From an uncultured Actinomycetes bacterium (GTDB lineage: Bacteria > Actinomycetota > Acidimicrobiia > Acidimicrobiales > JACCXE01), in assembly GCA_963718605.1 (NCBI GenBank), contig OY970363.1:834257-898256 (forward strand): a stretch of DNA of 64,000 nt, written 5' to 3'. Each line of letters opens with the position of its first letter. Within the stretch, counting starts at the first letter, position 1. A model generated the notes under the pieces. That model searched no databases. It saw nothing but the letters and a program-made list of their open reading frames with translations, and was not told where the DNA came from. Shown piece by piece: positions 209 to 22,985 of this stretch. The position numbers were made by a program, and so were the translations under genes.

Positions 209-486
<278 letters not shown>

Positions 487-2340: not shown

Positions 2341-2982
2341 TTACTTCTGCTTCCGGACTGCGTTGCGAATAAGTACGAGGCCGCCGCGCGGGCCGGGAAC
2401 ATTGCCCTTGACCAGCAACAACTCGCGCTCGGCGTCGGCCTGAATGACTTCGAGGTTCAGCGTGGTGACTTGTTCGCCACCCATGCGACCCGCCATCTTC
2501 GTGCCCTTGAACACGCGCGACGGCGTGGCGCAGGCGCCGATGGAGCCGGGAGCACGATGCTTCTTGTGGTTACCGTGCGTCGCCTTCTGGCCCTTGAAGT
2601 TGTGGCGCTTCATGCCGCCGGCGAAGCCTTTGCCCTTGCTCACCGCCGTAGCGTCGATTTTCTCACCGGCCTCGAGCACGTCGACACCAATGGAGTCGCC
2701 GACGTTGTAGGAACCCGCATCGTCGATGCGAAGTTCGATGAGCCGCTTGCCCGGGTCCACGCCGGCCTTGGCGAAATGGCCGGTCTCGGGCTTGTTAACC
2801 CGGGAGGCCTTCACCTGGCCGAACGTGACCTGAACCGCGCTATAGCCGTCACGGTCGGACGTCTTGACCTGCACGACACGGGCGGGGACGACGCGAAGCA
2901 CGGTCACCGGTACCAACCGGTGCTGCTCATCCCAAACCTGCGTCATACCGACCTTTTCGCCGATGATCGCTTTGGTTGCCAT
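2341..2982 (-). CDS. rplC: 50S ribosomal protein L3
   Basis: The ORF track gives 2341..3033. The L3-like N-terminus [17 protein letters not shown] starts at the internal ATG 2982..2980, so I trimmed to it. Rest of the protein is typical L3 ([16 protein letters not shown]). Confidence 0.93.
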
Positions 2983-3126
2983 TGCTCGGACCTTGTCTCT
3001 TCTCACGCGGACGCTCCGCCCGGGCATGCCCAAGCGGAGCGCTAATTACGTTGCGCCACGGGGTTCCCGATTGCTTTCTCACGAGGAGAAACGGGCGCCC
3101 GCGGACATCGATTTGCGAACCGGACG

Positions 3127-3155
3127 AGATTAGCGGTTCTGCGGGCCCTTGTCGA
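3127..3155 (-). promoter_or_regulatory. Candidate sigma-70-type promoter for the rplC-rplV operon
   Basis: Minus strand reads TCGACA (3155..3150), a 17-nt spacer, then TAATCT (3132..3127). It lies in the 132-nt gap between the upstream oxidoreductase stop and rplC. Sequence pattern only. Confidence 0.3.
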
Positions 3156-3165
3156 AAGCGATGAA

Positions 3166-4047
3166 TCAGCCCCTGAGCTGGGACTCGGCGTGGCTCAGGA
3201 TTCGCTGGAGGTGCAGGCCGCGGTGGATATCTGGGGCATTTGTGGGCTTTCGGGCTGCCGCGGCCGCTAGCGCGGCGGGAACGTTGGCCATCGACGTGGC
3301 GTCGGCGACGGTGCCGCAGTTGAGCGACGCCGACCCCTTCTCGGCGTACACCTCGATGCCGGACACACTTCCGACCCCGGCCGTGGCGCACAGGTCGACG
3401 CTGCTGGTGGCGCCGCTTTCGTGTTCGAGCAGCAGTGAAACCCATCCGAGTGGATCTCCGCTCGCTTTCACGCCAACCACCGGGCCCATCGCGGCGTCCA
3501 CCAGGTCCACGACGTGGGGCCCGAGGTCGAGCAGCGGCCCCCGTTCGAGGCGCCACGGAGTGGCAAAGGGGCTGTCGCCGAGCAACGCGCCCGAAACCAT
3601 CATCGCCCGTCCTCCCAGCAGCGGGCCAAGGGCGTGAGCCTGAGAGATGAAGTCGTCGGTGGCCTGGGCGTAGCGCCAGGACAGCAACACGACGGTGCCG
3701 ACCCCGGCCTCGCCCACCGCGGCTACGAGCCTCTCGGCCGCGGCGAGCTCGAGGGCGATCGGCTTCTCGAGCAGCAGCGCTTTGCCGGCTTTCGCCGCGG
3801 TCACGCCCAACTCGGCTTGCACATTCGGTGGCACGCAGAACGCCACCGCATCGCATTGATCGAGCAGTGCCTCGAATGATTCCGCGACCGCCGCGTTGTT
3901 GCGCTGCGCGGTTTTCTGGGCCGCGTCGGGCCGGCGAGCCCATACGGCCGTGAGCGTTGTATGAGCGCTGTTCGCCAAAACCGGGCCGTGGACCATGTTG
4001 GCCCAGGGGCCCGCGCCCACGAGACCGACCTTCAGGCGTTCGCTCAC
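3166..4047 (-). CDS. Gfo/Idh/MocA-family NAD(P)-dependent oxidoreductase
   Basis: Rossmann N-terminus KVGLVGAGPWANMVHGP and an EKP motif (LLLEKPIAL). I place the start at GTG 4047..4045, overlapping the upstream stop (GTGA). The 431-aa track ORF extends upstream with an Arg-rich non-coding-looking sequence. Confidence 0.8.
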   Translation of the reverse strand: MSERLKVGLVGAGPWANMVHGPVLANSAHTTLTAVWARRPDAAQKTAQRNNAAVAESFEALLDQCDAVAFCVPPNVQAELGVTAAKAGKALLLEKPIALELAAAERLVAAVGEAGVGTVVLLSWRYAQATDDFISQAHALGPLLGGRAMMVSGALLGDSPFATPWRLERGPLLDLGPHVVDLVDAAMGPVVGVKASGDPLGWVSLLLEHESGATSSVDLCATAGVGSVSGIEVYAEKGSASLNCGTVADATSMANVPAALAAAAARKPTNAPDIHRGLHLQRILSHAESQLRG

Positions 4048-4661
4048 TCGCTCATCATGTGCCGGAACGTGACGCTTATGCGCGGCCCGGACTCTTTGGT
4101 CTTGGGCACGCAGTGTTCCCACTGTCGCTGCATGAGTCCGCCAGTGACCATCAGGTCGCCGTTCGCCGGCTCGAACTTGACGGACGGACCGCCGCCGTGG
4201 GGCCGCACCAGAAATCGACGTTGCGCCCCGAGGGTGAGGATCGCCACGAACGGATAGGGGTTCCGGGCCGGAATCCGGTCGCGGTGCCAGGCCACCGAGT
4301 CGCGGCCGTCGCGGTAGAGGTTCAACCAGCCGGAGTTGAAGGCAAACCCGTAGCGCCGGCTCAGCGCCGAGCGGGCCTTCAGTAACACCGGTACTACCTC
4401 GGCCACGCGCGCGGCCTTCCACCCCGTGGTCAGCCGCGGCTCGGCCACCTTGTTGCCCCACATGACGCGGTCGTGCTGCGTCCAGGGCGCGTGCTCGACG
4501 AGCGCCGCGAACACCTCATCAGCGCCGGTCAACCATCCGGGGACGACGTCGACCCACGACGCGTCGTCGAGTTCGTGGCGGACCAAGCCCTTGAACTCGT
4601 GATCGATCGCAGGTTCAGAAGTGGCGAGCAACGAGGTCTGCCACGCGAGGTCGACTGCCAT
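4044..4661 (-). CDS. AlkB-like 2OG-Fe(II) dioxygenase
   Basis: 205-aa ORF with an HxD...H facial triad context (AWHRDRIP, WEHCVPK) and an RISVTFR C-terminal motif typical of AlkB-family dioxygenases. Confidence 0.75.
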   Translation of the reverse strand: MAVDLAWQTSLLATSEPAIDHEFKGLVRHELDDASWVDVVPGWLTGADEVFAALVEHAPWTQHDRVMWGNKVAEPRLTTGWKAARVAEVVPVLLKARSALSRRYGFAFNSGWLNLYRDGRDSVAWHRDRIPARNPYPFVAILTLGAQRRFLVRPHGGGPSVKFEPANGDLMVTGGLMQRQWEHCVPKTKESGPRISVTFRHMMSE

Positions 4662-4694
4662 CCCGCGACGGTATCCGAACTTACGTTCGAGTGT

Positions 4695-5540
4695 CTAGGC
4701 CCCGATGACGTCCAGCACCCGGGCAAAGCGTGCGACCTCGTCCGGGTTGAACTGCATGCCGATGGTGAGGGCCTGGAAGCCACACAGCAACCGGAACGCA
4801 CAGGCTCGGGCGATATCGGCGGCCGCCACCTCGTCGAGCAAGGCCTCCTCGCCACCGAACCACGCGACGGCTTCGACGGCGATCTGCGCGTCGACTGAGG
4901 CCGCGCTGCGCCAACCGGGCGAGACGTCGATGAGCGCGATCGTGTCGACGCCCGCGCCGACCAGGGTGTTGCCGGCGACGTCGCCGTGGACCACTTGGCA
5001 CTGCGCCTCCTCAGCCGCGTTGAGCGGAGGACCGGCGGCGCGCGCCCGCTCCCACTCAGCCCACTCGGGCACGTCGTAGATCGCTTGCTCCGGCAGCGGT
5101 GCCCCGTGCCACACGGTGCGCTCGGACCGCGCCCAGCGGTGCGAGCGCGGTTCGAGCCACTCGGGCTGCGCGCGCAAGCCGGCGCGTTCGGCCGCCCGCG
5201 GCAACTCGGTGTGGAACGCGCGCGCGGCGTCGATTACGTCACGCCAGCGATCCAAGCAGTGGTCACCCTCGATCCAGTGCCACGCGGTCCAGCCGTTGTA
5301 CAGCCACGCGCCGTTCGTGGCGCGTACCGGCTTGGCGACGCGAAACCCGCGCTCGTCGATCGTGTTGAGCGCGGTCGCAACCCAGTCCCCCTCGCCGGGG
5401 TTGGGTTCTTGCACGGGCTTGAGCACGACGTCGCCCACGCGCCAGACCGTTTGGCTGATGCCGCCCTTCAGATGGCGTGGCTCGCCTCGCAGCCCGAACG
5501 CCGCGAGCACCATGGGCGCCGGCGGTGTCGGTTCGGTCAT
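4695..5540 (-). CDS. APH/choline-kinase-fold phosphotransferase family protein
   Basis: 281 aa. Catalytic-loop-like VVHGDVAGNTLV followed by IALIDVSPGW (the HGDxxxxN...D pattern of the APH fold). ATGA overlap with the upstream P-loop gene. Confidence 0.65.
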   Translation of the reverse strand: MTEPTPPAPMVLAAFGLRGEPRHLKGGISQTVWRVGDVVLKPVQEPNPGEGDWVATALNTIDERGFRVAKPVRATNGAWLYNGWTAWHWIEGDHCLDRWRDVIDAARAFHTELPRAAERAGLRAQPEWLEPRSHRWARSERTVWHGAPLPEQAIYDVPEWAEWERARAAGPPLNAAEEAQCQVVHGDVAGNTLVGAGVDTIALIDVSPGWRSAASVDAQIAVEAVAWFGGEEALLDEVAAADIARACAFRLLCGFQALTIGMQFNPDEVARFARVLDVIGA

Positions 5541-6079
5541 ATGCGAAAGCGGTTTTCGACCAGTCCGTCGATCACCGCGGCCAGCGTTTCGTCTTCTGTG
5601 TGCATCGAGTTGTTCAACACGTGCCGCTCATACACGCCGAGCGCCGCGAACTCGTCGTACATCTTCGCAATCGGAATCGGATCGTTCATGTCCGGCTCGG
5701 GACGGGCGGTGCCGCGTGCGAACGCGGCTTCACGCGACGGCCGGATCACTACGTAATGCACCGGCGCGTCAAACGCGTTGCGAAAGCGGTCGAGAAACCA
5801 GGGCCCGACGATGCCGTCGACAATCACCACGTAGCCGCCACGCGCGTAGGCACCTGCGGCCGCGCCGAGCGCGTCGATCACGGTTTCGTTCTGCTTCGCC
5901 GACGCCGGCTCCCACGGAGGGATCCAGCCGCTCTTTACGTACTGGAAAAAGGCATCACCGTCGATGAGCACGCCCAGCGGCGCGGCTTCCACCACGCGTC
6001 GCACTGTGGTCGACTTGCCCGCGCCCGGTGGCCCGGTCACCACGACGACGTGGCCGGCGAGCGGCTCGAGTTGCATCAT
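5537..6079 (-). CDS. P-loop NTPase / small-molecule-kinase-like protein
   Basis: Walker A VVVTGPPGAGKSTT close to the N-terminus when started at ATG 6079 (MMQLEPLAGH...). That ATG overlaps the arsR stop (ATGA). The longer track ORF (to 6247) would run antisense through arsR. Confidence 0.7.
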   Translation of the reverse strand: MMQLEPLAGHVVVVTGPPGAGKSTTVRRVVEAAPLGVLIDGDAFFQYVKSGWIPPWEPASAKQNETVIDALGAAAGAYARGGYVVIVDGIVGPWFLDRFRNAFDAPVHYVVIRPSREAAFARGTARPEPDMNDPIPIAKMYDEFAALGVYERHVLNNSMHTEDETLAAVIDGLVENRFRI

Positions 6080-6411
6080 CGTGCCGGGCTGAGCGCGTCG
6101 CGCAACGCCGCGAGACGCGCGGGCACGACAGTGCACATAACCCAGCGACCCGACTTCTCTTTCGTGATCAGGCCGGCCTCGGCGAGGATCGAAAGATGAT
6201 GCGACACCGTTGACTGGCTCTTGTCGACCGGTTCTTCCAGATCGCAACTACACGCGGTGCAGTCCTGCGCGTTCGCGATGAGCGATAGAAGGCGGAGTCG
6301 TACGGGATCGGCCAGCGCCTTGAAGCCGGCAGCCAATTGCACCGCATCGCCTTCGCTGAGCGGTTCGCTCAGCAGTTGCGAGCAGCAATCTTGGGCGACG
6401 GTGATTGGCAT
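6076..6411 (-). CDS. arsR: ArsR/SmtB-family metalloregulator
   Basis: 111 aa. Winged-HTH core ALADPVRLRLLSLI...CSCDL...SQSTVSHHLSILAEAGLI. AAGGAG Shine-Dalgarno 6 nt upstream. Divergent from the ars structural genes. Confidence 0.85.
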   Translation of the reverse strand: MPITVAQDCCSQLLSEPLSEGDAVQLAAGFKALADPVRLRLLSLIANAQDCTACSCDLEEPVDKSQSTVSHHLSILAEAGLITKEKSGRWVMCTVVPARLAALRDALSPAR

Positions 6412-6421
6412 TAACTTCTCC

Positions 6422-6469
6422 TTGACACGTATCGATGTTCATCGATACATTGACGTTCTTCGATACATT
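6422..6469. promoter_or_regulatory. arsR/arsI divergent control region: candidate promoter overlapped by an inverted repeat plus a third half-site
   Basis: TTGACA (6422..6427), 18 nt, TACATT (6446..6451) on the plus strand. Perfect inverted repeat GTATCGAT-gttc-ATCGATAC (6429..6448). TCGATACATT recurs at 6460..6469. AGGAGG SD precedes the arsI ATG. Confidence 0.4.
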
Positions 6470-6484
6470 ACAGGAGGAACCGCA

Positions 6485-6874
6485 ATGTCGCGAGTGCAAT
6501 TGGCCTTGAACGTGTCAGACATCGACGAGGCCGTCGAGTTCTATTCGAAACTGTTTCAGGCGGAGCCGAACAAGCGCCGCGACGGATACGCGAACTTCGC
6601 TATCGAGTCGCCGCCGCTCAAGCTCGTTCTCATCGAGAATCCCGACGCGGCCGGTTCGCTAAACCACCTCGGCGTCGAGGTGTTCTCCACCGACGAAGTG
6701 ACCGCGGCCTCCGCGCGCTTCGCGAGCGAGGGTTTTGAAACTGCGAACGAGGATGGCGTCAGCTGTTGCTTCGCCGTGCAGGACAAGGTGTGGGTCGAAG
6801 GACCGGACAACCGCGCGTGGGAGATCTACACGGTGCTCGCCGACACCGAGACGCCAGCGGCCTGCTGCACCTAG
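6485..6874 (+). CDS. arsI: Glyoxalase/VOC-fold ArsI/CadI-like protein (candidate C-As lyase)
   Basis: 129 aa from ATG 6485 (MSRVQLALNVSDIDEAVEFY...). Vicinal Cys pair (VSCCFAV) and His/Glu metal-ligand contexts (HLGVEV, WEIY). Located in an ars cluster. Confidence 0.75.
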   Translation: MSRVQLALNVSDIDEAVEFYSKLFQAEPNKRRDGYANFAIESPPLKLVLIENPDAAGSLNHLGVEVFSTDEVTAASARFASEGFETANEDGVSCCFAVQDKVWVEGPDNRAWEIYTVLADTETPAACCT

Positions 6875-7570
6875 GTGACGCGACGACATGAACGTGCGCC
6901 CGCGCTCCTCGCCGAAGGCGTGGGCACAGGTCTCCTGGTAGCGATCGTCGTTGGCTCCGGGATCTTCGCTGCGCGCCTGAGCCCGCACGATGTCGGCTTG
7001 CAGCTGCTCGAGAACTCGACGGCGACCGGCGCCGGGCTCATGGCGTTGATCCTTACCTTCGGCCATGTCTCAGGTGCGCACTTCAACCCTGTCGTGACCC
7101 TGGTCGAACGGCTGCACGGCCGGCTCAGTACCGGCGACGCATTCGCGTATGTCGGCGCGCAGCTCGCGGGCGGCGCACTCGGCGCGATCGTTGCCAACCT
7201 GATGTTCGACCTGCGCGCGATAGATCTGTCGACGCACGCTCGTGCGTCCGGTTCGCTCTGGCTTGCCGAAGTCGTCGCGACGTTCGGCCTCCTCGTGGTC
7301 ATCGCCGGCGTCAGTCGTTCCGATCGCCACGACCGGGCCGCGTTCGCGGTCGGGGGCTACATCGCCGCGGCCTACTGGTTCACGTCGTCAACCTCGTTCG
7401 CCAACCCGGCAGTCACGATCGCGCGCACACTGACGAACACCTTCTCCGGCATCCGGCCGTCCTCGGCACCGGCGTTCGTCGGCGCGCAGGTCGTCGGGGC
7501 GCTGCTGGCGGCCGCGTTCACCGCGGTGGTCTTTCGTTCGACTTCCGTCGATGAGCTGGAGCCAGTGTGA
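6875..7570 (+). CDS. aqpS: MIP-family aquaglyceroporin (AqpS-like arsenite channel)
   Basis: 231 aa. Two NPx signature loops (HFNPVVT and ANPAVTIAR). GTG start directly after the arsI stop. GTGA overlap with arsC. Confidence 0.85.
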   Translation: MTRRHERAPALLAEGVGTGLLVAIVVGSGIFAARLSPHDVGLQLLENSTATGAGLMALILTFGHVSGAHFNPVVTLVERLHGRLSTGDAFAYVGAQLAGGALGAIVANLMFDLRAIDLSTHARASGSLWLAEVVATFGLLVVIAGVSRSDRHDRAAFAVGGYIAAAYWFTSSTSFANPAVTIARTLTNTFSGIRPSSAPAFVGAQVVGALLAAAFTAVVFRSTSVDELEPV

Positions 7571-7959
7571 GTAAGCCGGTCGTGTTGTTTCTCTGCATCC
7601 ACAACGCCGGACGTTCGCAGATGGCGCTCGGGTTCTTCGAGCACCTGGCCGACGGGGGCGCCGTTGGCTATTCGGGCGGCAGCGAGCCAGCCGCGAGTGT
7701 GAACCCGGCGGCGATCGCGGCCATGGCCGAGGTTGGCATCGACATCGCGTCTAACGAGCCGCGCCGTTGGTCTGACGCGGACTTCGAGGCGGCCGACGTC
7801 GTGATCACGATGGGGTGCGGCGACACCTGTACCTATGTGCCGGGGAAGCGGTATGAAGACTGGCCCCTGGATGACCCAGCCGGTCAGGGCGTGGAGGCCG
7901 TGCGTCCTATCCGCGACGACATCGAAGCGCGCGTCAAGGACCTGTTGACGCGTCTTTAG
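7567..7959 (+). CDS. arsC: LMW-PTP-type arsenate reductase
   Basis: 130 aa. CX5R P-loop LCIHNAGRSQMA plus a downstream Cys pair (GCGDTC) typical of thiol-coupled ArsC. Confidence 0.9.
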   Translation: MSKPVVLFLCIHNAGRSQMALGFFEHLADGGAVGYSGGSEPAASVNPAAIAAMAEVGIDIASNEPRRWSDADFEAADVVITMGCGDTCTYVPGKRYEDWPLDDPAGQGVEAVRPIRDDIEARVKDLLTRL

Positions 7960-7976
7960 GGCAGCGGCGGACCGCG

Positions 7977-8153
7977 CTACTTGTCTTCGACTTTGTTGAC
8001 GTGGGCCTCGTGGGTGCGGATCTCGCGGTTGTTCTTGCCAAGGGAGACCGTGATCTCGTCACCGATCACGTCCTTGTCGACAATGACTCCCCACTCGCCC
8101 TTGAAGTCACCTTCATTGATGAGGACCTTGTCGCCTTTTTTGAATCGACTCAT
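7977..8153 (-). CDS. Small (58 aa) hypothetical protein, SH3/KOW-like pattern; absent from the ORF track (below its length cutoff)
   Basis: My translation: MSRFKKGDKVLINEGDFKGEWGVIVDKDVIGDEITVSLGKNNREIRTHEAHVNKVEDK. Clean ATG..TAG ORF in an otherwise unassigned gap. No family recognised with certainty. Confidence 0.4.
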   Translation of the reverse strand: MSRFKKGDKVLINEGDFKGEWGVIVDKDVIGDEITVSLGKNNREIRTHEAHVNKVEDK

Positions 8154-8209
8154 GCGCCGACCGTAATTCGCTCGACGGCGGGCGCATCCGGAAGTGGACT
8201 GCGGCGCTG

Positions 8210-9084
8210 ATGCCAGCGAAGCGCCACGAGAACGAAGTCGACGTCGACGAGCCCCTTGTACGCCGACTCCTCGACGAACAGTTCCCGCAGTGGCACGACC
8301 TGCCGTTAACCATCGTCGAGCCGTCGGGCACCGACCACACGATCTTCCGTCTCGGGAGCGACATGGTCGTTCGCATGCCGATCATCGACCACGCGACGAC
8401 GCAGGCCGAGAAGGTTGGTTGCCGATCCTCGCACCGCACCTGCCGCTTGAGGTTCCGGTTCCCATCGCCATGGGTGCGCCGGGAGCGGGTTACCCGTTCA
8501 AGTGGTCGATCGTGCCGTGGATCGAGGGCGAGCGCGCGACTAGAGACAACATCGACTTGCACCAAGCGGCGCTGGACTTGGCCGCGTTTGTGCGGGCGCT
8601 TCACACGATCGAGGCGACCGACGGGCCCGGCGCCGGCAGGCACACCGGCTTTCGCGGCAAATCGATCCGGCCCGGGGCGGACCTCGTGCGAGAGTCGGCG
8701 AAGCGCGTCGAGGGCTACGACACGACCGCAGCGATCGCCGCGTGGGACGAAGCGGTCGCAGCAGACGAATGGAGCGGACCCCCGCGTTGGTTCCACGGCG
8801 ACCTCACGTGGAACTTGATCGCGCGCGACGGCCGGCTGGTCGGGGTGATCGACTCCGGTTACGGAACCGGCGACCCGGCGTGCGACTTGGCCGCGGGATG
8901 GGTGCTGTTCACGGGCGAGGACCGCGCCACCTTCTTCGACGCCGTCGGGCTCGACGACGCCTCGCGGTTGCGCGGCCGGGGCTGGGCCATCGGGCCGGCC
9001 ATGACGGGCCTTTGGTACTACCGCTACGTCCCGCATCTGCTGGCCAACGGGCAGCTTGTCGTCAGGAACGCACTGGCCGACTAA
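8210..9084 (+). pseudogene. Aminoglycoside/antibiotic phosphotransferase (APH) family gene interrupted by a frameshift near 8408..8421
   Basis: The N-terminal 65 aa (MPAKRHENEVDVDEPLVRRLLDEQFPQW...ATTQAEK) are in one frame. The rest (GWLPILAPHLPLEVPVP...WFHGDLTWNLIARDGRLVGVIDSGYGTGDP...) is in the -1 frame. Together they make one APH-fold protein. Confidence 0.6.
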
Positions 9085-9093
9085 AACACCGAC

Positions 9094-10260
9094 GTGCAGT
9101 CGATCGTGATCGTCGGAACCGGCGCGGCCGGATATGCAGTAGCGGAGGGGCTTCACTCGGCGGGCTTCGAAGGCGCCGTGACGTTGGTCGGCGAAGAACG
9201 TGATGAGCCTTACGACCGCCCGCCGTTGTCGAAGGAAGTGCTGAGCGGCGCGTGGGATCGCGACCGCGCTGCGCTGATCGGAGCCAAGCGCGCCGCGCCG
9301 CTCAACCCGCGCCTGATCACCGGTGTCCAGGCGACGTCGCTCGACGTCGAGGGGCATCACGTCGAACTCAACAACGGTGAGACGCTGAGCTACGACGCCG
9401 TCGTAATCGCGACCGGTGTCACGCCCAGGCGCTTGGAGCATCCGGACAGTCCCAACATCCGCGTCCTGCGCACCATGGAGGACTCGCTCGCGCTGCGCGC
9501 GCTACTCGCAGGCAACCCGAGGCTGCTCGTGGTCGGGGGCGGCTTCCTCGGCCTCGAGGTCGCCGCCACCGCTCGCGGCCTAGGCGCCACGGTCACGGTC
9601 GTCGAGCCGATACCCGGGCCGCCGCTCGCGTCGCGCATCGGCACCGAAGCCGCGAAGAAACTGCAATCCGTCCACGCCGAACACGGCGTCGACATCCACA
9701 CCGGCCTGGGCGTCGCGGGTCTCGAAGCGGAGGCGGGCGGCGGCCTGGTGCGCGCCGCACTCAGCGACGGCACCACGGTCGACGCCGACGTAGTGCTCAT
9801 CGCCGTCGGAAGCGTGCCAACCACGCAGTGGCTTGAAGGCAGCGGACTCGAGTTGGCCAACGGCGTGGTCTGCGACGAGTTCTGCTCGGCTGGCAACGAC
9901 GTGTGGGCCGCCGGCGACGTCGCGTCATGGCTGCACGTCGGCTACGACCGACGGCTCCGGCTGGAGCACAGGACCAATGCGCAGGAGCAAGGCCTGGCGG
10001 TCGGCCGCAACATCGTCGGCCCCCCGACGCCGTTCACGCCTGTCCCCTACTTCTGGACAAACCAGTACGACGTACGCATCCAGGTGCACGGCCAAATAGT
10101 GGACATCGACAACAACACGGTGATCGAAGGCGACCCGGCAGACGCCTCCTTCGTGCAGACGTTTTCCGATAGCGGACAGGTAACGGCCGCCCTCGGCTGG
10201 AACGCGGCCCGGCTGATGGCCGCGCACCGCAAGCAACTTCTCGACGCAATGCCGGCCTGA
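9094..10260 (+). CDS. FAD-dependent pyridine nucleotide-disulfide oxidoreductase (ferredoxin reductase-like)
   Basis: 388 aa. Dinucleotide folds IVIVGTGAAGYA and LLVVGGGFLGLEVA, plus a PYDRPPLSKE motif. GTG start. Confidence 0.85.
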   Translation: MQSIVIVGTGAAGYAVAEGLHSAGFEGAVTLVGEERDEPYDRPPLSKEVLSGAWDRDRAALIGAKRAAPLNPRLITGVQATSLDVEGHHVELNNGETLSYDAVVIATGVTPRRLEHPDSPNIRVLRTMEDSLALRALLAGNPRLLVVGGGFLGLEVAATARGLGATVTVVEPIPGPPLASRIGTEAAKKLQSVHAEHGVDIHTGLGVAGLEAEAGGGLVRAALSDGTTVDADVVLIAVGSVPTTQWLEGSGLELANGVVCDEFCSAGNDVWAAGDVASWLHVGYDRRLRLEHRTNAQEQGLAVGRNIVGPPTPFTPVPYFWTNQYDVRIQVHGQIVDIDNNTVIEGDPADASFVQTFSDSGQVTAALGWNAARLMAAHRKQLLDAMPA

Positions 10261-10279
10261 CTCGGTCTACCGTCCGCTC

Positions 10280-11716: not shown

Positions 11717-12416
11717 AAGCCCAGACCTCCGCGCCGACTTTCGTGATCGACAGCGGCGCCGCAATCGTTGTGGCTTTACGTTGCCAATCGTCGACGTTGA
11801 ACGCGTGGAGGTAGTCCGCGATCGCCGACTCGTCGGGTAACACGTACGCGATCAGTCGCCACGGATCAACCTCGACGTCACCGAAGACCTCGGCGACCAG
11901 GCCCGGTGCGTCCTCGGCGTCAAACGTGGTCGGGGTGGCCCAGTTCGGGTCAATGCCTTCCAGCTCGGGATCGTTGAAGCGGCTGGGCGACGACGCCACG
12001 AACACACCGCCGCGGCGCAGGACGCGCCACGCCTCGCGGATTGCGACGACGGGGTCGTCCAAAAAATAGAGGCAGTTGATCGCGGCGACCGCGTCGAGCG
12101 AGTCGTCCGCGAATGGCAGCGCGCACAGATCGGCGCGGCACGACGGACGATGGCCCTCGGCCAACATGTCCGGGTCACGATCGACGACGCACGTCGCGAC
12201 TCCGCGCTCCGCCAGCAGCGCGGCGATCGGACCACGACCGCCGCCTACTTCGGCGAACGTCGACGCGCCCGTCGCCAGGATGCGGTCCGCCAGACCGGGG
12301 TAAATGTCCTCGACGACCAGATAGTTCTCGTAGACGCGATGCCACGCCGATAGCCGCGCCTCGTCTGGGTGGACGTAGCTATGGGTGTTCGGGCTCGGCG
12401 CGCAACCTTCGGGCAT
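11709..12416 (-). CDS. Class I SAM-dependent methyltransferase
   Basis: Motif I FAEVGGGRGP and post-I/II motifs (VVDRD, INCLYFLDD, LRRGGVFV). I prefer ATG 12416, which overlaps the upstream stop by 1 nt (TAATG), over the track start 12434. Confidence 0.8.
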   Translation of the reverse strand: MPEGCAPSPNTHSYVHPDEARLSAWHRVYENYLVVEDIYPGLADRILATGASTFAEVGGGRGPIAALLAERGVATCVVDRDPDMLAEGHRPSCRADLCALPFADDSLDAVAAINCLYFLDDPVVAIREAWRVLRRGGVFVASSPSRFNDPELEGIDPNWATPTTFDAEDAPGLVAEVFGDVEVDPWRLIAYVLPDESAIADYLHAFNVDDWQRKATTIAAPLSITKVGAEVWASK

Positions 12417-13147
12417 TACGCCTGCCTTTCCCACACCGCGATCTGCCAGCGGCTGTCGCTCGTGAACGGATCGCGCTTCCAGGTGCCCCAGCGCTCGCGC
12501 AGCGTGAGGCCCGCGAGCTGGGCCATGAGGTCGAGCTCCGCCGGCCAGACGTAACGGTACGGCGCCGAGAACTTTTCGAGCTGACCCGCCACCTCGAACC
12601 AGTGATGCGAGTAGCTGATCTGCGTCGCGATGTCGAAATCCTCAAAACCAATGTGGGTCGGCGTCGCGTGAAAGACCCGGTACTTCTCACCCGCCGGCAC
12701 CCGCTGGAGCGCCGGAATGACCACTTCGACCACGAAGCATCCGCCCGGTTCGAGATGGGCGGCCACGTTGCGGAACGTTTCGACCTGCTCGGCCTGCGTC
12801 GTGACGTTCATGATGGTGTTGTAAACGAGATACGCGAGACGGAAGGATCGATCCAGCTTCGTGGTCGCGAAGTCGCCGATCGTCACGGCGATCGCGTCCG
12901 CTCCCGGCTTGGCTCGCAGTTGCGCGGCCATGTCCTCGGAGAGCTCGATGCCGTACACGCGCGCGCCGCGCTCGCTCAGCGGCAGCGCGACGCGCCCTGT
13001 GCCAATCGCAAGCTCCAGCACCTCGCCGTCGCCCGCGAGATCGGCCAGGAACTCCACCGCCGGATCGAGCACCTCGGGGCGGAACATCTCCGTGGACGTC
13101 GCGTCGTAGGTCTCCGCGATGCGGCCGGTGAAGGTGTTCTCGGGCAT
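12416..13147 (-). CDS. Class I SAM-dependent methyltransferase
   Basis: Motif I VLELAIGTGRVALPL, then YGIELSEDM. Start taken at the internal ATG (MPENTFTGRIAETYD); the track ORF starts 5 codons earlier (13162). Confidence 0.8.
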   Translation of the reverse strand: MPENTFTGRIAETYDATSTEMFRPEVLDPAVEFLADLAGDGEVLELAIGTGRVALPLSERGARVYGIELSEDMAAQLRAKPGADAIAVTIGDFATTKLDRSFRLAYLVYNTIMNVTTQAEQVETFRNVAAHLEPGGCFVVEVVIPALQRVPAGEKYRVFHATPTHIGFEDFDIATQISYSHHWFEVAGQLEKFSAPYRYVWPAELDLMAQLAGLTLRERWGTWKRDPFTSDSRWQIAVWERQA

Positions 13148-13194
13148 GCAGCAATCTCTCATCGCCAGCCAACAGTGGCGACGGATTTAACGCG

Positions 13195-14802
13195 TCAGAC
13201 GCGCGTGAGCTTGGCGAGTAGATCGGCTTCGGTTCCATCCCGCCGCGGAATAGCTATGCGCAGGCAAAGCATCCACGCGCCGACGCAGGCGACCATCCCG
13301 GCGAGGAACACCACGAGCTGCGCGGGGCTGTCGCTGGGTACGACGTACGCCGCGATGAGCAGTGGGGAGACGGTGAGCATCGTTCCGAAGACGACCGCAA
13401 GCGATGCGAGGCCGCCGGCAGAACCGCCGCCGGAGCCGCCGCTACCGAAGACGTTGCCGCGGCCGACGTCGGGCATCGGGAACGGAGCGCGCACGCTGGC
13501 AATCGCCGAGTACCCCGAGGCCACGCCGAGCACCGCGGCCATCAGTCCGAGGGCAGGAAGCGCGCCCGCCGGGCTACGCGTGAACACGACGAGTGCGGCA
13601 AGAAGCACAAGACCCATCGGCACGGTCACGAGCGCCCGCGCAAGCGTGCGCGCCAAGAGTTCGACGCGAGTGGGCACGGCGGCGACCACGTCAGTCCAGT
13701 ACCGATCACCGTCGAACCCGAAGAGGTTGGGGTTGGCGCCAGCTGTCAGCATCGGCAACGCCGCGAGCAGACACAGCCGGGGCCCCGCGCCCGCGGCGTC
13801 GTTCAGTCGCAGGAGTGGGAAGAGCGCTGGTGTCAGTAGGCCCAACAGAGCGGCGCGTCGACGCGGCTCGCGCCACGAGTAGCGCAACTCCTTGGCGACG
13901 ATGCCGCCGAGCGCGTTCTTGGGCAACCCGCGCACTGCGCGCGGGAACAGCGCGGTCCGCACGCCTCGCTTCGGGCCGCCTCCCGTCGCCGGGTTCGTTG
14001 TCGCCGCTTGAATCGCGCGCCACCACAACACGACGGTCACACCGATCAACGCCGCGGTCGCTACGACCCCGAGCAGCGGAGCAACGAACGAACTGCTCTG
14101 CGCGCCATGAATTGCCTGCGCTCCCCATCCGGTGGGAAGCCACCGCGCGATGCGGCGGAGGGCGATCAGGAACGCCGATTGCGGATCGGTCGAGAACTGT
14201 CCCGAGTCGTCGGTGAAGCGTCGGTTCAACAACTGGACGCCGCCGTTGATGACCAACGCGAGCAGCGGGCCGACGAAGAGCGCTACATCACGCCAACGTC
14301 GCTTGCTGGTGGCCGCCGACAGCGTGGTGCTGACGAGCCGGCTCAGCGCCATGAAGAACAAGAACTCGAGCGCGACTACAAGCGCGACGGGCACGGCGCC
14401 GAGACCCGTTGGCGTCGTGCCGACGAAGACCCCGAGCAGCACGAGCGCGGTGAATAGCCCGCCCGGGCCGACCGCAGCCGACAACAGCAGTCCGGGCATG
14501 AGTTGCCGGCCGGTCAACGGAAAGAGCGACAGGCGGTCGATGTCGAGCGTGTTGTCGGATGCGAGGGCGAGCAGCGGCGCGACCACCCACCCGAGCAACA
14601 GCACAAAGAACACGAAGGCGGCGACGTCGGACGACGTGGCGTCGTCGGTCGATCGCAACGCGATGAGCCCGAGGAAGGTGGTGCCGCCGAAAAACAGCGC
14701 CACCAACAGCGATGCAACCAATCCGACGGCGGACCGCCACCCACCGCGCCTGAGCCCGCCGCTGAGCAGCGCCAGCTTCAGGGAGACGAGGTGTCCAACC
14801 AT
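13195..14802 (-). CDS. ABC-2-type transporter permease (polytopic membrane protein)
   Basis: About 535 aa from ATG 14802 (MVGHLVSLKLALLSGGLRRGGW...) with many hydrophobic spans. It overlaps the upstream ATPase gene end. The 635-aa track ORF over-extends antisense-style into the ATPase gene. Confidence 0.7.
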   Translation of the reverse strand: MVGHLVSLKLALLSGGLRRGGWRSAVGLVASLLVALFFGGTTFLGLIALRSTDDATSSDVAAFVFFVLLLGWVVAPLLALASDNTLDIDRLSLFPLTGRQLMPGLLLSAAVGPGGLFTALVLLGVFVGTTPTGLGAVPVALVVALEFLFFMALSRLVSTTLSAATSKRRWRDVALFVGPLLALVINGGVQLLNRRFTDDSGQFSTDPQSAFLIALRRIARWLPTGWGAQAIHGAQSSSFVAPLLGVVATAALIGVTVVLWWRAIQAATTNPATGGGPKRGVRTALFPRAVRGLPKNALGGIVAKELRYSWREPRRRAALLGLLTPALFPLLRLNDAAGAGPRLCLLAALPMLTAGANPNLFGFDGDRYWTDVVAAVPTRVELLARTLARALVTVPMGLVLLAALVVFTRSPAGALPALGLMAAVLGVASGYSAIASVRAPFPMPDVGRGNVFGSGGSGGGSAGGLASLAVVFGTMLTVSPLLIAAYVVPSDSPAQLVVFLAGMVACVGAWMLCLRIAIPRRDGTEADLLAKLTRV

Positions 14803-15539
14803 GCCAACGCTGTCGTGTCGTCGGGCGCGGCCCCGACCAGTTCGAAGAACACGTCCTCGAGTCGCTTGCCGCCGAGCAGCTTGTCGGTGGGGCCCGACGC
14901 CACCAGTCGTCCCGCGCTGATCACGCCGATGTGATCGCAGATGCGTTCCACGGTCTCCATCACGTGGCTGCTGAAGACGACCGTGCCCCCGGTCTCGGTG
15001 TAGCGCTCGAGCACGTTGCGAATCGTGCGCGACGAGATGGGGTCCACCGATTCGAACGGCTCGTCGAGAAACACGACGCGCGGCGCGTGCAACAGCGCAC
15101 ACGCGAGCGCGATCTTCTTGCGCATGCCTTGGCTGAAGTCGATGACAAACGTGGCCCGGTCGTCGGCCAGCCCCAGAACCTCGAGGAGTTCATCGGAGCG
15201 CTGCTGGGTCGTCGCCGGGTCCATGCCGCGCAACAGCCCGTTGTAGCTCAGTAACTCGTCGGCCGATAACCGATCGAACAAGCGCAGGTCTTCGGTGAGC
15301 ACACCGATACGCGCCTTGGCCGCGACCGGCTCGGACCACACGTCGTGGTCACACACCTCGACAGTCCCGGCGTCGGGCCGCAACAGACCCGTCGCCATTT
15401 TTAGTGTCGTGCTCTTGCCCGCGCCGTTGGGACCGACCAGTCCGAAGAACGACCCTGTCGGCACATCGAGGCTCAAGTCGTTGACGGCCTTCTTGTCTTC
15501 GAACGACTTGGAGAGACCGCGCAACGAAACCGCGGGCAT
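14778..15539 (-). CDS. ABC transporter ATP-binding protein
   Basis: Walker A GLVGPNGAGKSTT, signature FSQGMRKK, Walker B VVFLDEPFESVD. Start placed at MPAVSLRGLSKSF (15539); upstream in-frame starts up to 15632 are possible. Confidence 0.9.
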   Translation of the reverse strand: MPAVSLRGLSKSFEDKKAVNDLSLDVPTGSFFGLVGPNGAGKSTTLKMATGLLRPDAGTVEVCDHDVWSEPVAAKARIGVLTEDLRLFDRLSADELLSYNGLLRGMDPATTQQRSDELLEVLGLADDRATFVIDFSQGMRKKIALACALLHAPRVVFLDEPFESVDPISSRTIRNVLERYTETGGTVVFSSHVMETVERICDHIGVISAGRLVASGPTDKLLGGKRLEDVFFELVGAAPDDTTALAWLDTSSP

Positions 15540-15788
15540 TGCCGCCGCCTTCGGCCTGCGGCCCGACGCGCGCAGCGGCGTCGTCCGCCGAGCGCGCTCG
15601 TCCATCACCCCGCCGACTCTACGATCCGCCACGTTGCCCTATCGGCGGGTACCAACTCGAACTCAGTGTCGGCCCGGCAGCCAGGCGGCGTGAACGAAGT
15701 CACCTATTCGTACGTTTGGCGTTTCGAGAGCCTCGGCGTCGTTTACGTCCGAAAGCTACGCTCTGCCCAGAACAAGGGGGTACCAACG

Positions 15789-17572
15789 GTGCGAAACTTG
15801 ACACGTTGTGCGTGCGTGCTGGCGCTGATCGCCTGCGGGGCATTCGGGCTAGGGCCAAGCCGGGCCGAGGCGAACCCGCCGGCGCCGCGGTGCCCGCAGT
15901 CACCGATCGTCGGGCCGGTCCTCTCAGGACTCGGGCTCTGCAAGCGAGCAGCCGACCTGGCGATCGTCAGCACCATTGCGCCCGCCACCGCCCTGGTCGG
16001 GGACTCGATCACCTACACAGTTACCGCGGCGAACAACGGGCCCAATCACACGGACGCCACGCTGGACGTAACGCTCCCGTCCGACGCGCGCGCGTCCTCA
16101 CCGCGCCCTCGTCGTGCGTAACGAGTTCAGGCGGAACGGCGGTGGTGGTCGCATGCTCCCTCGGACGGATCAAGGACGGAGACAGCGCGACCCGCACGCT
16201 GAGTGTCAAGTACGCGACCCGTGGCGCGAAGCAAGCTCTGTTCGCGGTCGCGGGTGAACTTACGGATCCCAACTCCAATAACAACCAGGCTGCCGCCACG
16301 ACGAGCGTTGACCCCATCCCTTGTCATCCGGCGTCGACGTTGTCGCGGGTGACGGGTCCTGGGGTTGAGGACCAGCCCAGTGTGGGCGGTGCGTTCACGA
16401 TCCAGGCTGTCGATGCGCAAGGCGCCAACGTGACGTGTGGCGGTACGCCCTTCAGCGCCTCGGTGTTCCACGGCTACACGACGTCTATTCCCTTGACCGA
16501 CAACGGCGACGGCACCTATAGCGGCCGCTACAACAACGGATACGCCGGCGAGTACACCGTGTCGATCCTGGTCAACGGCGCGCCCATCGCCGGAAGCCCG
16601 TTCGTCATCACCCGGCCCGGCGTTGCCGCGAGCAAAACGCGGGCCTACGGCCCCGGTCTCGAAGGCGGCGCCGTCGGCACCGTCGCCGAGTTCTTCGTTG
16701 AGCTGAACCAAATAGACGGACAGCGCTACACCGAACCCGACGCACCGATCGGCGTCGACATCACGGACCCCAACGGCAACATCGTCCCCGTCGAAAAAAG
16801 CACCGTCGAACCCGGACGCCTCCGCTACACCTACCAACCCCAACTCGTCGGCACTTACCAAGTCGACGTAGTAGTCCGCAACACCCAAGACCCCAACCAA
16901 TCCCAACCCGTCCCCGGCTCCCCCTTCTCCGTACCAATCCAATGTCCGGCGTCGACGTTGTCGCGGGTGACGGGTCCTGGGGTTGAGGACCAGCCCAGTG
17001 TGGGCGGTGCGTTCACGATCCAGGCTGTCGATGCGCAAGGCGCCAACGTGACGTGTGGCGGTACGCCCTTCAGCGCCTCGGTGTTCCACGGCTACACGAC
17101 GTCTATTCCCTTGACCGACAACGGCGACGGCACCTATAGCGGCCGCTACAACAACGGATACGCCGGCGAGTACACCGTGTCGATCCTGGTCAACGGCGCG
17201 CCCATCGCCGGAAGCCCGTTCGTCATCACCCGGCCCGGCGTTGCCGCGAGCAAAACGCGGGCCTACGGCCCCGGTCTCGAAGGCGGCGCCGTCGGCACCG
17301 TCGCCGAGTTCTTCGTTGAGCTGAACCAAATAGACGGACAGCGCTACACCGAACCCGACGCACCGATCGGCGTCGACATCACGGACCCCAACGGCAACAT
17401 CGTCCCCGTCGAAAAAAGCACCGTCGAACCCGGACGCCTCCGCTACACCTACCAACCCCAACTCGTCGGCACTTACCAAGTCGACGTAGTAGTCCGCAAC
17501 ACCCAAGACCCCAACCAATCCCAACCCGTCCCCGGCTCCCCCTTCTCCGTACCAATCGCATCGGCGCCGTAG
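15789..17572 (+). pseudogene. Secreted DUF11-domain + four filamin/ABP280-type Ig repeat protein, split by a frameshift at a (CG)5 run
   Basis: GTG 15789 is preceded by AAGGGGG. Signal peptide VRNLTRCACVLALIACGAFGLGPSRAEA. The DUF11-like domain (LAIVSTIAPATALVGDSITYTVTAANNGPNHTDATLDVTLPSD...) continues in another frame after 16085..16094 (...VLTAPSSCVTSSGGTAVVVACSLGRIKDGDSATRTLSV...DPNSNNN). Four repeats then follow, each ending in the filamin hallmark GSPF. Confidence 0.7.
16328..17557 (+). repeat. Tandem direct duplication, period 618 bp (206 codons), two copies
   Basis: 16328..16939 recurs at 16946..17557. I found no mismatch by line-by-line comparison, and the ORF-track translation is identical over both copies. 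Each unit encodes two filamin-type repeats. Confidence 0.9.
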
Positions 17573-17604
17573 TCACGTCGGTAGCGCCGTAGCGCTCCGC
17601 GGAC

Positions 17605-17656
17605 GCGAAGAAGCGCCACCCGAAGGCGGGGCTTCCCCTTACAAGCTCGACTGCTT
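17605..17656. repeat. Copy A of a 52-nt 3'-flank/terminator-like module (degenerate hairpin)
   Basis: gcgaagaagcgccacccgaaggcggggcttccccttacaagctcgactgctt matches 18189..18240 at 47/52 positions. It abuts the stop codon of the 17656..18129 gene. Confidence 0.8.
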
Positions 17657-18129
17657 TACAGGACGGTGCAGGTGCCGGCGACGTCCCACGAGGCGGACTG
17701 ATCCTCCGGCAAAGTTAAGCTCGGCCCGTCGGCCCCGTAACACCTCAGAACGTGCCCGTCGGTGAAACTTGCTCTGTAGAGCGCGGCGTCAGCGAACGCC
17801 AACGAGTAGCTGCGCAGCGTCTTCGGGTACGTCCAAGCGTTCTTGTCCAAGCCCGTCGCCGGCATGCGGGTGCAGTCGAGCACCCGGGTAATGAAGTCGC
17901 CGTCGCATTGGTACGTGGCCACGGCCGCGACTTGCTTTTGGTAGGTACTGAACTGGATGGTGGCGTGGAGCTCATTACTACTGACCCCTCCGGGGCCGCC
18001 GCCGGCGGCGACGTATCGCGTCCCCTTGAAAGGGCCCACCCAGTCGCGGTCGGCGGCCGCCGCCGGGCCGACGTGCACAGGAATCAACGCAACGACCACA
18101 GCCACGACCAACAAACAAGCGCGACGCAT
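17656..18129 (-). CDS. Hypothetical secreted Cys-containing protein
   Basis: 157 aa. Signal peptide [35 protein letters not shown] 5 nt upstream of the ATG. No family recognised. Confidence 0.6.
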   Translation of the reverse strand: MRRACLLVVAVVVALIPVHVGPAAAADRDWVGPFKGTRYVAAGGGPGGVSSNELHATIQFSTYQKQVAAVATYQCDGDFITRVLDCTRMPATGLDKNAWTYPKTLRSYSLAFADAALYRASFTDGHVLRCYGADGPSLTLPEDQSASWDVAGTCTVL

Positions 18130-18188
18130 AGCAACCTCCCCAGCACGCCTGCCCAGCGCAGGCGTTGCTCGGTGAAGCGTAGACAGGC

Positions 18189-18240
18189 GCGAAGAAGCCC
18201 CGCCCGGAGGCGGGGATTCCCCTTACAAGCTCGACCGCTT
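18189..18240. repeat. Copy B of the 52-nt module, immediately 3' of rpsJ; contains hairpin CCCCGCC-cgga-GGCGGGG (18198..18215)
   Basis: Same module as 17605..17656. Here the 7-bp GC stem is perfect and on the minus strand is followed by CTTCTTCG. Candidate (weak U-tract) terminator of the rpsL-rpsJ transcription unit. Confidence 0.6.
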
Positions 18241-18553
18241 ACGCGGTCTGGATCTTGATTTCGATGTCGACGCCGGCCGGCAGGTCGAGGCGCTGAAGCG
18301 AGTCGACCGTCTTGGGCGTGTGCTCGACGATGTCGAGCAGGCGCTTGTGGATCCGCATCTCGAAGTGCTCGCGGCTGTCCTTGTACTTGTGCGGCGAGCG
18401 GATCACCGTGAAGCGGTGCTTCTCCGTTGGGAGCGGCACCGGGCCACGAACTACGGCCTGCGTACGCAGAACCGTCTCGACGATCTTCTTGGTCGACTGG
18501 TCGATGACCTCATGGTCGTACGCCTTCAACCGGATGCGAATCTTCTGAGCCAT
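18239..18553 (-). CDS. rpsJ: 30S ribosomal protein S10
   Basis: 104-aa [31 protein letters not shown]...RLLDIV, unmistakable S10. Starts only 7 nt after the tuf stop. Confidence 0.97.
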
Positions 18554-18560
18554 CGTCTAA

Positions 18561-19754
<1,194 letters not shown>

Positions 19755-19825: not shown

Positions 19826-21916
<2,091 letters not shown>

Positions 21917-21997: not shown

Positions 21998-22468
21998 TTA
22001 CCAGCGGTAGTGGGCGTAGGCGCGGTTTGATTCCGCCATCTTCTGCAAATCCTCACGGCGCTTGACTGAAGCACCGACGCCGTTCGCGGCGTCCATGAGT
22101 TCGAGGGCGAGGCGCTCGGTCATCGTGCGCTCGCGACGCGAACGCGCAAAGCCCACGAGCCAGCGAATGGCCAGCGTGGTCTGACGTTCACGACGAACTT
22201 CCATCGGGACCTGGTAGGTGGCGCCACCAACGCGACGGCTCTTCACTTCGAGCTGCGGCTTGGTGTTCTCGAGGGCGCGCTTGAGCGTGGCGATCGGCTC
22301 GGTGCCGGTCTTCTCTTCGATCGACTTCAGTGCGTCGTAGACGATGCGCTCGGCCAGCGAACGCTTGCCGCGCGACAGCACCTTGTTGACCAGCTGGGTA
22401 ACGAGCTGCGAGTGGTAGATCGGGTCCGGGTTGAGCGGACGTACCGAAGGGGGACCTTTGCGGGGCAT
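21998..22468 (-). CDS. rpsG: 30S ribosomal protein S7
   Basis: 156 aa, [31 protein letters not shown]..., typical S7. Confidence 0.98.
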
Positions 22469-22471
22469 TGC

Positions 22472-22843: not shown

Positions 22844-22985
22844 ACAAACCTCTGGAGTTGTACTGCTACGGACGGCCGCCAAGCACCCAGCTTTTGACAA
22901 GACTGAGGCGCACAAGCCAGCGGTCCATGTTAGGTGTTGTGCCCAGCCCCCGCAAACGGCGGCTACTGCCCGGTAGGGTGACGCG

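Follow-up and report, generated by a model that had tools for sequence, protein, structure and literature searches.

Few gene arrays in bacteria are as conserved as the ribosomal-protein operons, and there is little documentation beyond model organisms of how stoichiometry is maintained once they have been re-wired. In cyanobacteria and cyanelles, the order is rpsL-rpsG-fus-tufA-rps10 and S10 stands apart from rplC; both the cyanobacterial and the plastid (cyanelle) str operon reportedly end in rps10, and we know of no equivalent leader RNA before rplC in these groups. In E. coli, rpsJ heads the S10 operon (rpsJ-rplC-rplD-...), which has an L4-responsive leader (Zengel and Lindahl work; PMC3616713, PMC10931766) that is restricted to Gammaproteobacteria (PMC3616713). 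Here we describe a stretch of 64,000 nucleotides (nt) from an uncultured member of the Acidimicrobiales (contig OY970363.1; hereafter the window), in which rpsJ closes a str-type gene cluster, and rplC, preceded by a conserved structured leader, begins 15,256 nt further on (rpsJ stop to rplC ATG). The best explanation of the whole, to which we give a probability of about 0.8, is that the str and S10 genes form two autonomous units separated by an old, clade-wide shift of their boundary, with a leader on the rplC unit and variable filler DNA in between.

Detached S10 genes are also known from other groups. In Archaea, uS10 is always separate from uL3-uL4-uL23 and linked to elongation-factor genes (PMC10833476); the window shares the uncoupling of S10 from L3-L4-L23-L2, but the domain, the promoters and the regulation are different. 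In Fastidiosibacteraceae and Caedibacter (Gammaproteobacteria), rpsJ lies in the str operon in place of tufA, according to operon calls based on RNA sequencing (PMC7297999); rpsJ is annexed to the str operon in the window as well, but there tuf is kept and rpsJ is appended after it. Insertions between operons of the ribosomal supercluster, which tend to grow, have been described in Gammaproteobacteria and Bacilli (PMC8046335), and the window resembles them in that a supercluster boundary is the landing site for accessory genes and the opened gap grows. In those insertions, and in a Streptomyces locus of our own sample (L078; related loci are denoted by L numbers) with 4.3 kb between tuf and rpsJ, the gap precedes rpsJ and the S10 operon is intact, whereas the gap in the window follows rpsJ. 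In M. tuberculosis, Rv0686-Rv0699 lie between tuf and rpsJ. The gene order of the window is therefore a new instance of a known arrangement; it shares with the cyanobacterial and cyanelle operons both the order of the five genes and the detachment of S10 from rplC, but occurs in another phylum, and would be either independent (convergent) or differently retained. A search of the literature on Acidimicrobiia with rpsJ, ribosomal protein and operon returned no description of such a boundary shift.

The ribosomal genes of both units are all on the minus strand (Table 1). Downstream of rpoC, the genes rpsL-rpsG-fusA-tuf-rpsJ are contiguous and co-directional, with spacers of 3, 81, 71, and 7 nt, and rpsJ is physically apart from rplC, as in a str operon with rps10 appended. 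The preliminary description of this DNA had placed rpsJ 7 nt after the tuf stop, as a member of the str operon that is separated from rplC, and the junction (TAG ttagacg ATG) bears this out exactly. The rpsJ open reading frame (ORF) encodes a full-length S10 of 104 amino acids (aa), and the tuf product shares 74-98% identity with those of related loci (100% over one 66-aa fragment). We found no GGAG-type Shine-Dalgarno sequence in the 7-nt spacer or the final tuf codons, no promoter-like site across positions 17500-23500, a region that includes the sequence upstream of rpsJ, no second copy of rpsJ anywhere in the window, and no remnant of it near rplC. The canonical S10 operon has a promoter and leader 5′ of rpsJ and rplC directly after it; here just 7 nt precede rpsJ, and 16-17 genes intervene before rplC. 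Judged from gene order, the str/S10 boundary of this clade is displaced downstream by one gene relative to E. coli and other Actinomycetota. Since spacers of 0-15 nt and the lack of a Shine-Dalgarno sequence recur in many lineages, we infer that rpsJ is probably co-transcribed with tuf and translated by coupling or reinitiation; the first unit would then be rpsL-rpsG-fusA-tuf-rpsJ, with S10 delivered as its final cistron.

To compare the layout among relatives, we used tblastn to find fusA, tuf, rpsJ, rplC, and rplD in 80 genome loci and determined the distances between the genes. The S10 protein places the window in Acidimicrobiales, its top matches being Acidimicrobiales metagenome-assembled genomes (MAGs; 99-76% identity), and an identical S10 occurs in five independent assemblies, all with tuf-rpsJ followed by differing non-ribosomal genes. 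The tuf-rpsJ spacer measures -1 to 84 nt in 60 of the 66 measurable Acidimicrobiia loci; it is at most 15 nt in at least 25, and the two genes overlap (TAAATG or TGAATG) in three. The distance from rpsJ to rplC is 181-9559 nt in 55 of 57 measurable Acidimicrobiia loci (181-430 nt in about half, 1.2-9.6 kb in the remainder), and about 11 further loci have no rplC within the 5-10 kb of sequence present 3′ of rpsJ. Even the smallest of these spacers (181-430 nt) hold a terminator, a promoter, and the leader. By comparison, seven loci from Streptomyces, Micromonospora, Kitasatospora, and other Actinomycetes have only 11-16 nt between rpsJ and rplC, and 127-4308 nt between tuf and rpsJ (measured in six). 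Large rpsJ-rplC gaps are found throughout the subclade of the window (L002, L006, then L022, L028, L030). An assembly artefact, in which tuf-rpsJ was chimerically joined to unrelated DNA, has to be considered with comparison genomes that are mostly MAGs, but its probability is close to nil: the architecture recurs in dozens of independent assemblies, including the long-read, chromosome-level OY969694.1, OZ239143.1, OZ220474.1, and NZ_OZ241977.1, and also on JGI, ENA, and NCBI contigs.

One ingroup locus, L060, has the classic layout: its tuf and rpsJ are 362 nt apart, and its rpsJ and rplC overlap. In a neighbour-joining tree of EF-Tu and EF-G it is sister to all 37 other Acidimicrobiia loci, in which rpsJ lies at most 720 nt from tuf (at most 63 nt in 35 of them) and in none of which rplC is beside rpsJ. 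The classic layout of the outgroup Actinomycetes and of the basal L060 suggests that the shift is old and clade-wide, and a single old shift in the clade is the simplest reading of the tree; the 15 kb of the window would then be lineage-variable filler, not a recent disruption. The preliminary description implied that some 15 kb of accessory genes had entered an operon that was canonical in other respects, and took a split that was universal and already described for the class as a sign of ancestry instead of novelty. The comparison does not support such an insertion, since nearly all Acidimicrobiia loci examined share the shift; the synteny check that it proposed for tuf-rpsJ-rplC showed the split to be real and old, and also largely class-universal.

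The interval itself contains 17 ORFs according to frame-specific GC content at third codon positions (GC3) and Pfam, none of them ribosomal. We give the count as 16-17 because the ORFs at 15666-16121 and ∼16121-17572 resemble one frameshifted gene: the DUF11 profile is split at ∼16085-16125, with its positions 1-45 in ORF 15666-16121 and its positions 59-113 in the frame of ORF 15539-17572, which suggests that a single gene of ∼635 aa has been frameshifted, either genuinely or through a sequencing error. The earlier figures of 15.2 kb and 17 unrelated genes in both orientations are thus right in length, orientation, and non-ribosomal content, and slightly too definite in number. A recent, genome-specific insertion (a genomic island) that split a canonical rpsJ-rplC pair, leaving the promoter and terminator as incidental features, would agree with the size of the interval, its mixed orientation, and its accessory cargo, including an ArsI/CadI-MIP-ArsC arsenic cassette, and much of the content is indeed absent from the nearest relatives. 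We nevertheless consider such an insertion very improbable, given that rpsJ is already uncoupled from rplC, even at 181-430 nt, in every sampled relative other than L060 and L038 (see below). In addition, five genes of the interval (encoding the ferredoxin-reductase-like protein, the AAA_33 kinase, the TIGR02569-like protein, the 2OG oxygenase, and the GFO oxidoreductase) have homologues in the same relative order in L006, L007, and partly L001; this core is old, since it shares 55-70% amino acid identity, compared to 91-99% for the S10 and L3 proteins of L006 and L007 (91% for the rplC product in both). A mobile genomic island was rejected on further grounds: no integrase or transposase domains were found among the interval proteins (Pfam, NCBIfam), there is no transfer RNA (tRNA) gene in the interval, no repeats bracket it as a whole (the sole local repeat is a 53-nt duplication around one gene), and its GC content is flat (0.63-0.69).

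Specific to this lineage are the arsenic module (6221-7959, plus strand), which is not found in the nearest relatives, the orphans, and the genes for the surface protein, the phosphodiesterase, and the two methyltransferases. The ArsI/CadI-family metalloenzyme of the module (NF041414, 1.7e-55) has an extra N-terminal region of ∼90 aa. At the rpsJ end, copies of the 53-nt repeat at 18188-18240 and 17604-17656 bracket the orphan gene 17656-18129, which has the appearance of a cassette that entered at the rpsJ terminator and left this terminator in two copies. Only in amount and composition is the filler lineage-specific, and it was built up in layers. With two autonomous units, the DNA between them would be selectively free, so that accessory genes could be gained and lost repeatedly, and this would explain why the gap is 181 nt in some relatives and 15,256 nt here.

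A hairpin follows rpsJ, as had been noted before, and its terminator-like fold and its enrichment among relatives confirm that observation. In the window it begins 17 nt past the rpsJ stop (GGGGAAUCCCCGCC-UCCG-GGCGGGGCUUCUUC). At this place in close relatives there is either GAAGAAGCCCCGCC-UUCG-GGCGGGGCUUCUUC or a tail of UUUUU, including textbook terminators such as GAAAAGGCCCCGCC-UUCG-GGCGGGGCUUUUUC. Across 75 loci, the 80 nt 3′ of rpsJ have a median minimum free energy of -38.2 kcal/mol, compared to -27.7 kcal/mol for random 80-nt windows from the same loci (Mann-Whitney, p=1.5e-18). We propose that the first unit ends at this GC-rich terminator hairpin. Transcription of rpsJ and rplC as one unit, through a very long transcript reading across the 15 kb, is more improbable still than a recent insertion: the hairpin of the window lacks a strong U tract and the next gene (17656-18129) is co-directional, both of which would permit it, but the transcript would be antisense to the 8-9 plus-strand genes of the interval (6221-11716 and 15666-17572), two copies of the terminator segment lie on its path, and rplC has its own conserved promoter and leader.

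The non-coding spacer 5′ of rplC measures 183 nt, counted from position 3166, where the GFO-family gene stops, to the rplC ATG (2982). The preliminary description gave 132 nt for it, a figure that has to be replaced, and its promoter TCGACA-17-TAATCT is present, with TCGACA at 3155-3150, TAATCT at 3132-3127, and 17 nt between them. In 137 of 138 distinct loci, the 100 nt preceding the leader include a TANNNT box, compared to 7% of random control windows, often with TTGGAa/c ∼17 nt further upstream; the window sequence GCTAATCTC is identical in L006 and L007. By its position, which is conserved among the relatives, TAATCT is the predicted -10 box. The second unit (rplC-rplD-rplW-rplB-rpsS onward) would thus have its own sigma-A-type promoter, with transcription starting near 3120 and a predicted 5′ untranslated region (5′UTR) of ∼138 nt.

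Aligning the sequences upstream of rplC revealed a conserved element of ∼115 nt directly 5′ of the gene, with the consensus CAAyCGACGUCCnnnnnGGCC-[variable hairpin]-GGGAACCnnnnnGGCACAACCGA-n-GCGCUCCGCCGGG-loop-CCCGnGCGGAGCGUUCGCGUGA; the earlier argument that ribosomal protein stoichiometry must be maintained across re-wired units, and the proposal to examine leader structures upstream of rplC, are borne out to this extent. Its structure, a long-range helix (P1) enclosing a variable hairpin (P2), followed by a nearly invariant GC hairpin (P3), was derived from 47 sequences aligned with MAFFT, using RNAalifold and an explicit count of pairs. P1 shows compensatory changes in 6 of 7 pairs, with 93% of the cells paired. 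Over the whole leader 91.8% of the cells are paired, compared to 81.0% in column shuffles (none of 500 reached the observed value), and sliding the partners by 1-3 columns lowers the pairing to 35-48%. The result was repeated on 88 distinct metagenome sequences, in an alignment that is fitted to the covariance model of the leader (R1, see below) and biased to one sequence subgroup (93.8% paired, 86.5% in shuffles, again 0 of 500). Over both alignments, P1 has 4-6 compensatory pairs, and 92-94% of the cells are paired compared to 33-49% when slid. A single-sequence fold of the window leader gave a differing, non-conserved pairing with a weak z-score (-1.54), and the comparative structure was used. 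We also considered a fourth helix or pseudoknot pairing CAACCGAA with the UUCGCGUG tail, and discarded it after a brute-force scan of column pairs, in which P1 and the first inner pair of P2 alone showed strong covariation; the lineage of the window alters the leader tail without compensation.

Between the leader and the start of rplC there are 16 to ∼200 nt, and in many lineages an extra hairpin is inserted. This hairpin, seen for example in L040, L043, L046, L056, and L057, is stable, GC-rich, and variable in sequence, and may be an attenuator. It is missing in the lineage of the window, where the leader abuts the purine-rich ribosome-binding region.

We built a covariance model for the leader (R1) and searched it across the genome loci. 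The window scores 77.9 bits (E=2e-17, positions 3002-3117), and 56 loci each have exactly one strong match (39-95 bits), on the rplC strand and immediately upstream; rplC follows the leader in 56 out of 56. The seven outgroup loci, L060, and L038 gave no match, even with filters off. A possible homology of the leader to the tuf-rpsJ spacers of loci with the classic layout was rejected, as none was found in L060, L069, L076, or L082 (filters off, E<=10). The leader is thus absent where the layout is classic and present where the genes are split, and the two co-occur perfectly in the sample. For a search that does not depend on rplC, metagenome contigs were scanned with a 19-base piece of the leader: of the 120 matches, R1 recognized 94 as full elements, the other 26 being the bare pattern without the structure, and rplC lies 46-125 nt past the pattern match in all 91 elements with enough downstream sequence. 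A weak R1 match (25 bits, E=0.002) was seen at 5580-5658 of L029 (Microthrixaceae), directly after tuf; in this locus rpsJ lies 4.4 kb downstream of tuf, and a strong copy of the leader precedes rplC as well.

Rfam 15 gave no match to the window leader at the gathering threshold or at E<=10, and none for the leader of L040; for L013 the only matches had E values of ∼1 or more, far below family thresholds. In other Actinobacteria, the upstream part of the ribosomal supercluster commonly has L10 and L1 leaders (PMC3616713). Eckert and Weinberg (2020) described 20 candidate ribosomal-leader motifs, of which only L4-Archaeoglobi is listed before rplC, where it precedes rplC-rplD-rplW-rplB (PMC7247131). 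Like that motif, the present leader is clade-restricted, supported by covariation, and located in a 5′UTR upstream of rplC; unlike it, it comes from Acidimicrobiia and precedes a bacterial rplC, which none of the 20 does (PMC7247131). With its place in the 5′UTR past a conserved -10 box and its covarying structure, the leader is, by all appearances, a new family within the known class of clade-restricted ribosomal leaders. Compared with the E. coli S10 operon, the window has the same order rplC-rplD-rplW-rplB-rpsS and a long structured 5′UTR, and L4 feedback provides the prior model, but the unit lacks rpsJ and its leader precedes rplC. The leader has no sequence or Rfam similarity to that of E. 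coli and, unlike it, is not followed by a U-tract attenuator in the window.

The three-helix leader in the ∼138-nt 5′UTR would most likely be the place where one of the operon's ribosomal proteins exerts feedback, by analogy with the E. coli S10 leader (PMC3616713, PMC10931766). That the ligand is one of these proteins we put at slightly better than even odds; L4 in particular is the prior candidate, and a tentative one. It is conceivable, with the odds somewhat against it, that the leader is an undescribed clade-specific autoregulatory RNA, responding to L4 or another operon protein, which arose together with the relocation of the boundary. Other roles for the element are unlikely, though less so than any of the alternatives for the gene order given above. 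As DNA, the two arms of P3 are a perfect inverted repeat, as in an operator, but the loop between them varies from ∼8 to 45 nt and P1 covaries over an insert of variable sequence, as expected of pairing in RNA but not of a site for protein on DNA. An upstream ORF (uORF) or initiation signal is suggested by the P3 3′ arm, which holds GGAG (3002-3011 in the window, and equivalents), with NUG exactly 6 nt further on in 128 of 131 loci; but the NUG is in the rplC frame in only 50 of 131, as expected by chance, and that frame is no more open than another, so that an N-terminal extension of L3 or a uORF starting at this NUG was rejected. The NUG varies as a start codon does (GUG in 114 loci, AUG in 13, CUG in 4). 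In favour of any of these other roles, no sequence-level mimicry of ribosomal RNA (rRNA; comparison with E. coli) was seen. Against a metabolite riboswitch, Rfam has no match and the element is found only in front of a ribosomal-protein operon. A structure for RNase processing or 5′ stability, finally, may apply, and is compatible with a regulatory role.

Several points weigh against two autonomous units separated by an old shift, or against parts of this explanation. The tree was made by simple neighbour joining and carries no support values, and L060 is counted as Acidimicrobiia by its record title. The locus L038 (OZ241989.1, Ca. Hopanoidivoransaceae) has fusA-rpsJ-rplC, no tuf, and no leader, so the layout is not strictly universal; it resembles the Fastidiosibacteraceae/Caedibacter arrangement and is probably a secondary rearrangement or compaction. 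In this Acidimicrobiales chromosome, rpsL-rpsG-fusA-rpsJ-rplC-rplD occupy 6694-11650 of the locus with a gap of 5 nt between rpsJ and rplC; L049, from the same family (Ca. Poriferisocius), has tuf and rpsJ 5 nt apart, and rplC 4080 nt beyond. At the first unit, the hairpin of the window has no long U tract and a weak single-sequence z-score (-1.24); there may be partial read-through of it, or an internal promoter inside tuf. At the second, a strict scan for the sigma-70 consensus made no call at TCGACA/TAATCT, the stretch from the GFO-family stop to the rplC promoter has no predicted terminator, and the four co-directional genes at 6247-3166 may read through into rplC. The variable distance between the leader and rplC argues against simple sequestering of the Shine-Dalgarno sequence; together with the inserted hairpin, it would favour control of transcription or messenger RNA stability over such occlusion. 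A search of the leader profile with nhmmer against the E. coli rrnH operon had its best hit at E=0.66 in the 5S region, and the single 9-mer common to the leader and E. coli rRNA (GGAGCGUUC, 23S ∼1192) equals the chance expectation.

With two units and an old shift, the locus would be a clean, clade-wide case, in an abundant and little-studied environmental class, of a str/S10 boundary that moved by one gene, and the opened boundary would have become a hotspot for accessory DNA. The orphaned rplC operon bears a strongly conserved structured leader that is absent from RNA-family databases and can be used at once for annotating Acidimicrobiia genomes. For genome scans there is a caution, in that a striking 15-kb interruption may be the variable part of an old, stable architecture. 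If the leader is autoregulatory and was born with the move of the boundary, it would be a datable, natural birth of a ribosomal feedback element during operon re-wiring, and the re-wiring would be convergent with the placement of S10 in cyanobacteria and archaea.

Table 1. Features of the str/S10 region in the window, in the order of transcription of the ribosomal genes (coordinates of the 64,000-nt window).
Feature	Position	Strand	Basis
rpsL (S12), str unit gene 1	22472..22846	-	Pfam Ribosom_S12_S23, 2e-41
rpsG (S7)	21998..22468	-	Pfam Ribosomal_S7, 1.7e-60
fusA (EF-G)	19826..21916	-	Pfam EF-G domains
tuf (EF-Tu)	18561..19754	-	translation
tuf-rpsJ spacer ttagacg, 7 nt	18554..18560	-	sequence
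rpsJ (S10), final str-unit cistron	18239..18553	-	Pfam Ribosomal_S10 PF00338, 5.4e-36
terminator-like hairpin, CUUCUUC tail instead of long U tract	18191..18222	-	fold
accessory interval, 16-17 genes, both orientations	3166..18129	.	Pfam, NCBIfam, GC3 frames
interval: 157-aa orphan (hypothetical)	17656-18129	-	
second copy of 53-nt segment (rpsJ stop and terminator)	17604..17656	-	direct repeat D2, 91% identical
interval: DUF11/filamin-repeat surface protein, apparent frameshift near 16090-16120			
interval: two methyltransferases, 535-aa orphan (hypothetical), ABC ATPase			
interval: APH-family kinase, ferredoxin-reductase-like flavoprotein, type I phosphodiesterase			
interval: arsenic module (ArsI/CadI, MIP channel, low-molecular-weight (LMW)-phosphatase-type ArsC)	6221-7959	+	
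interval: GFO/IDH/MocA oxidoreductase, 2OG-Fe(II) oxygenase, TIGR02569-like protein, AAA_33 kinase			
predicted rplC-unit promoter TCGACA-17-TAATCT, predicted start near 3120	3127..3155	-	sequence
structured leader of rplC unit	3002..3117	-	alignments A1/A2, RNAalifold, pair counts, model R1
leader P1, long-range helix	3099-3106 paired with 3055-3061	-	
leader P2, variable hairpin inside P1; foot pairs conserved, first inner pair covaries			
leader P3, nearly invariant GC hairpin	3030-3042 paired with 3011-3024	-	
leader conserved 3′ tail GUCCGCGUGA, after P3			
rplC (L3), downstream-unit cistron 1	2341..2982	-	Pfam Ribosomal_L3
rplD	1621-2340	-	Pfam L4
rplW	1334-1624	-	Pfam L23
rplB	493-1329	-	Pfam L2
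rpsS	208-486	-	Pfam S19

Some further features of the window were noted. The surface-protein gene of the interval contains direct repeats of 300 nt (16327-16626 and 16945-17244) that are 100% identical and 618 nt apart, reflecting either a very recent internal domain duplication or a collapse or expansion in the assembly. The window takes in rpoC together with the upstream portion of the supercluster, and over its whole 64 kb the Rfam gathering thresholds yield four tRNAs only and no ribosomal-leader family. Between rpoC and rpsL there is an ORF of 451 aa on the opposite strand (22986-24341, plus strand), with coding-like GC3 and no Pfam or NCBIfam match, so the rpoBC-str junction is interrupted as well.

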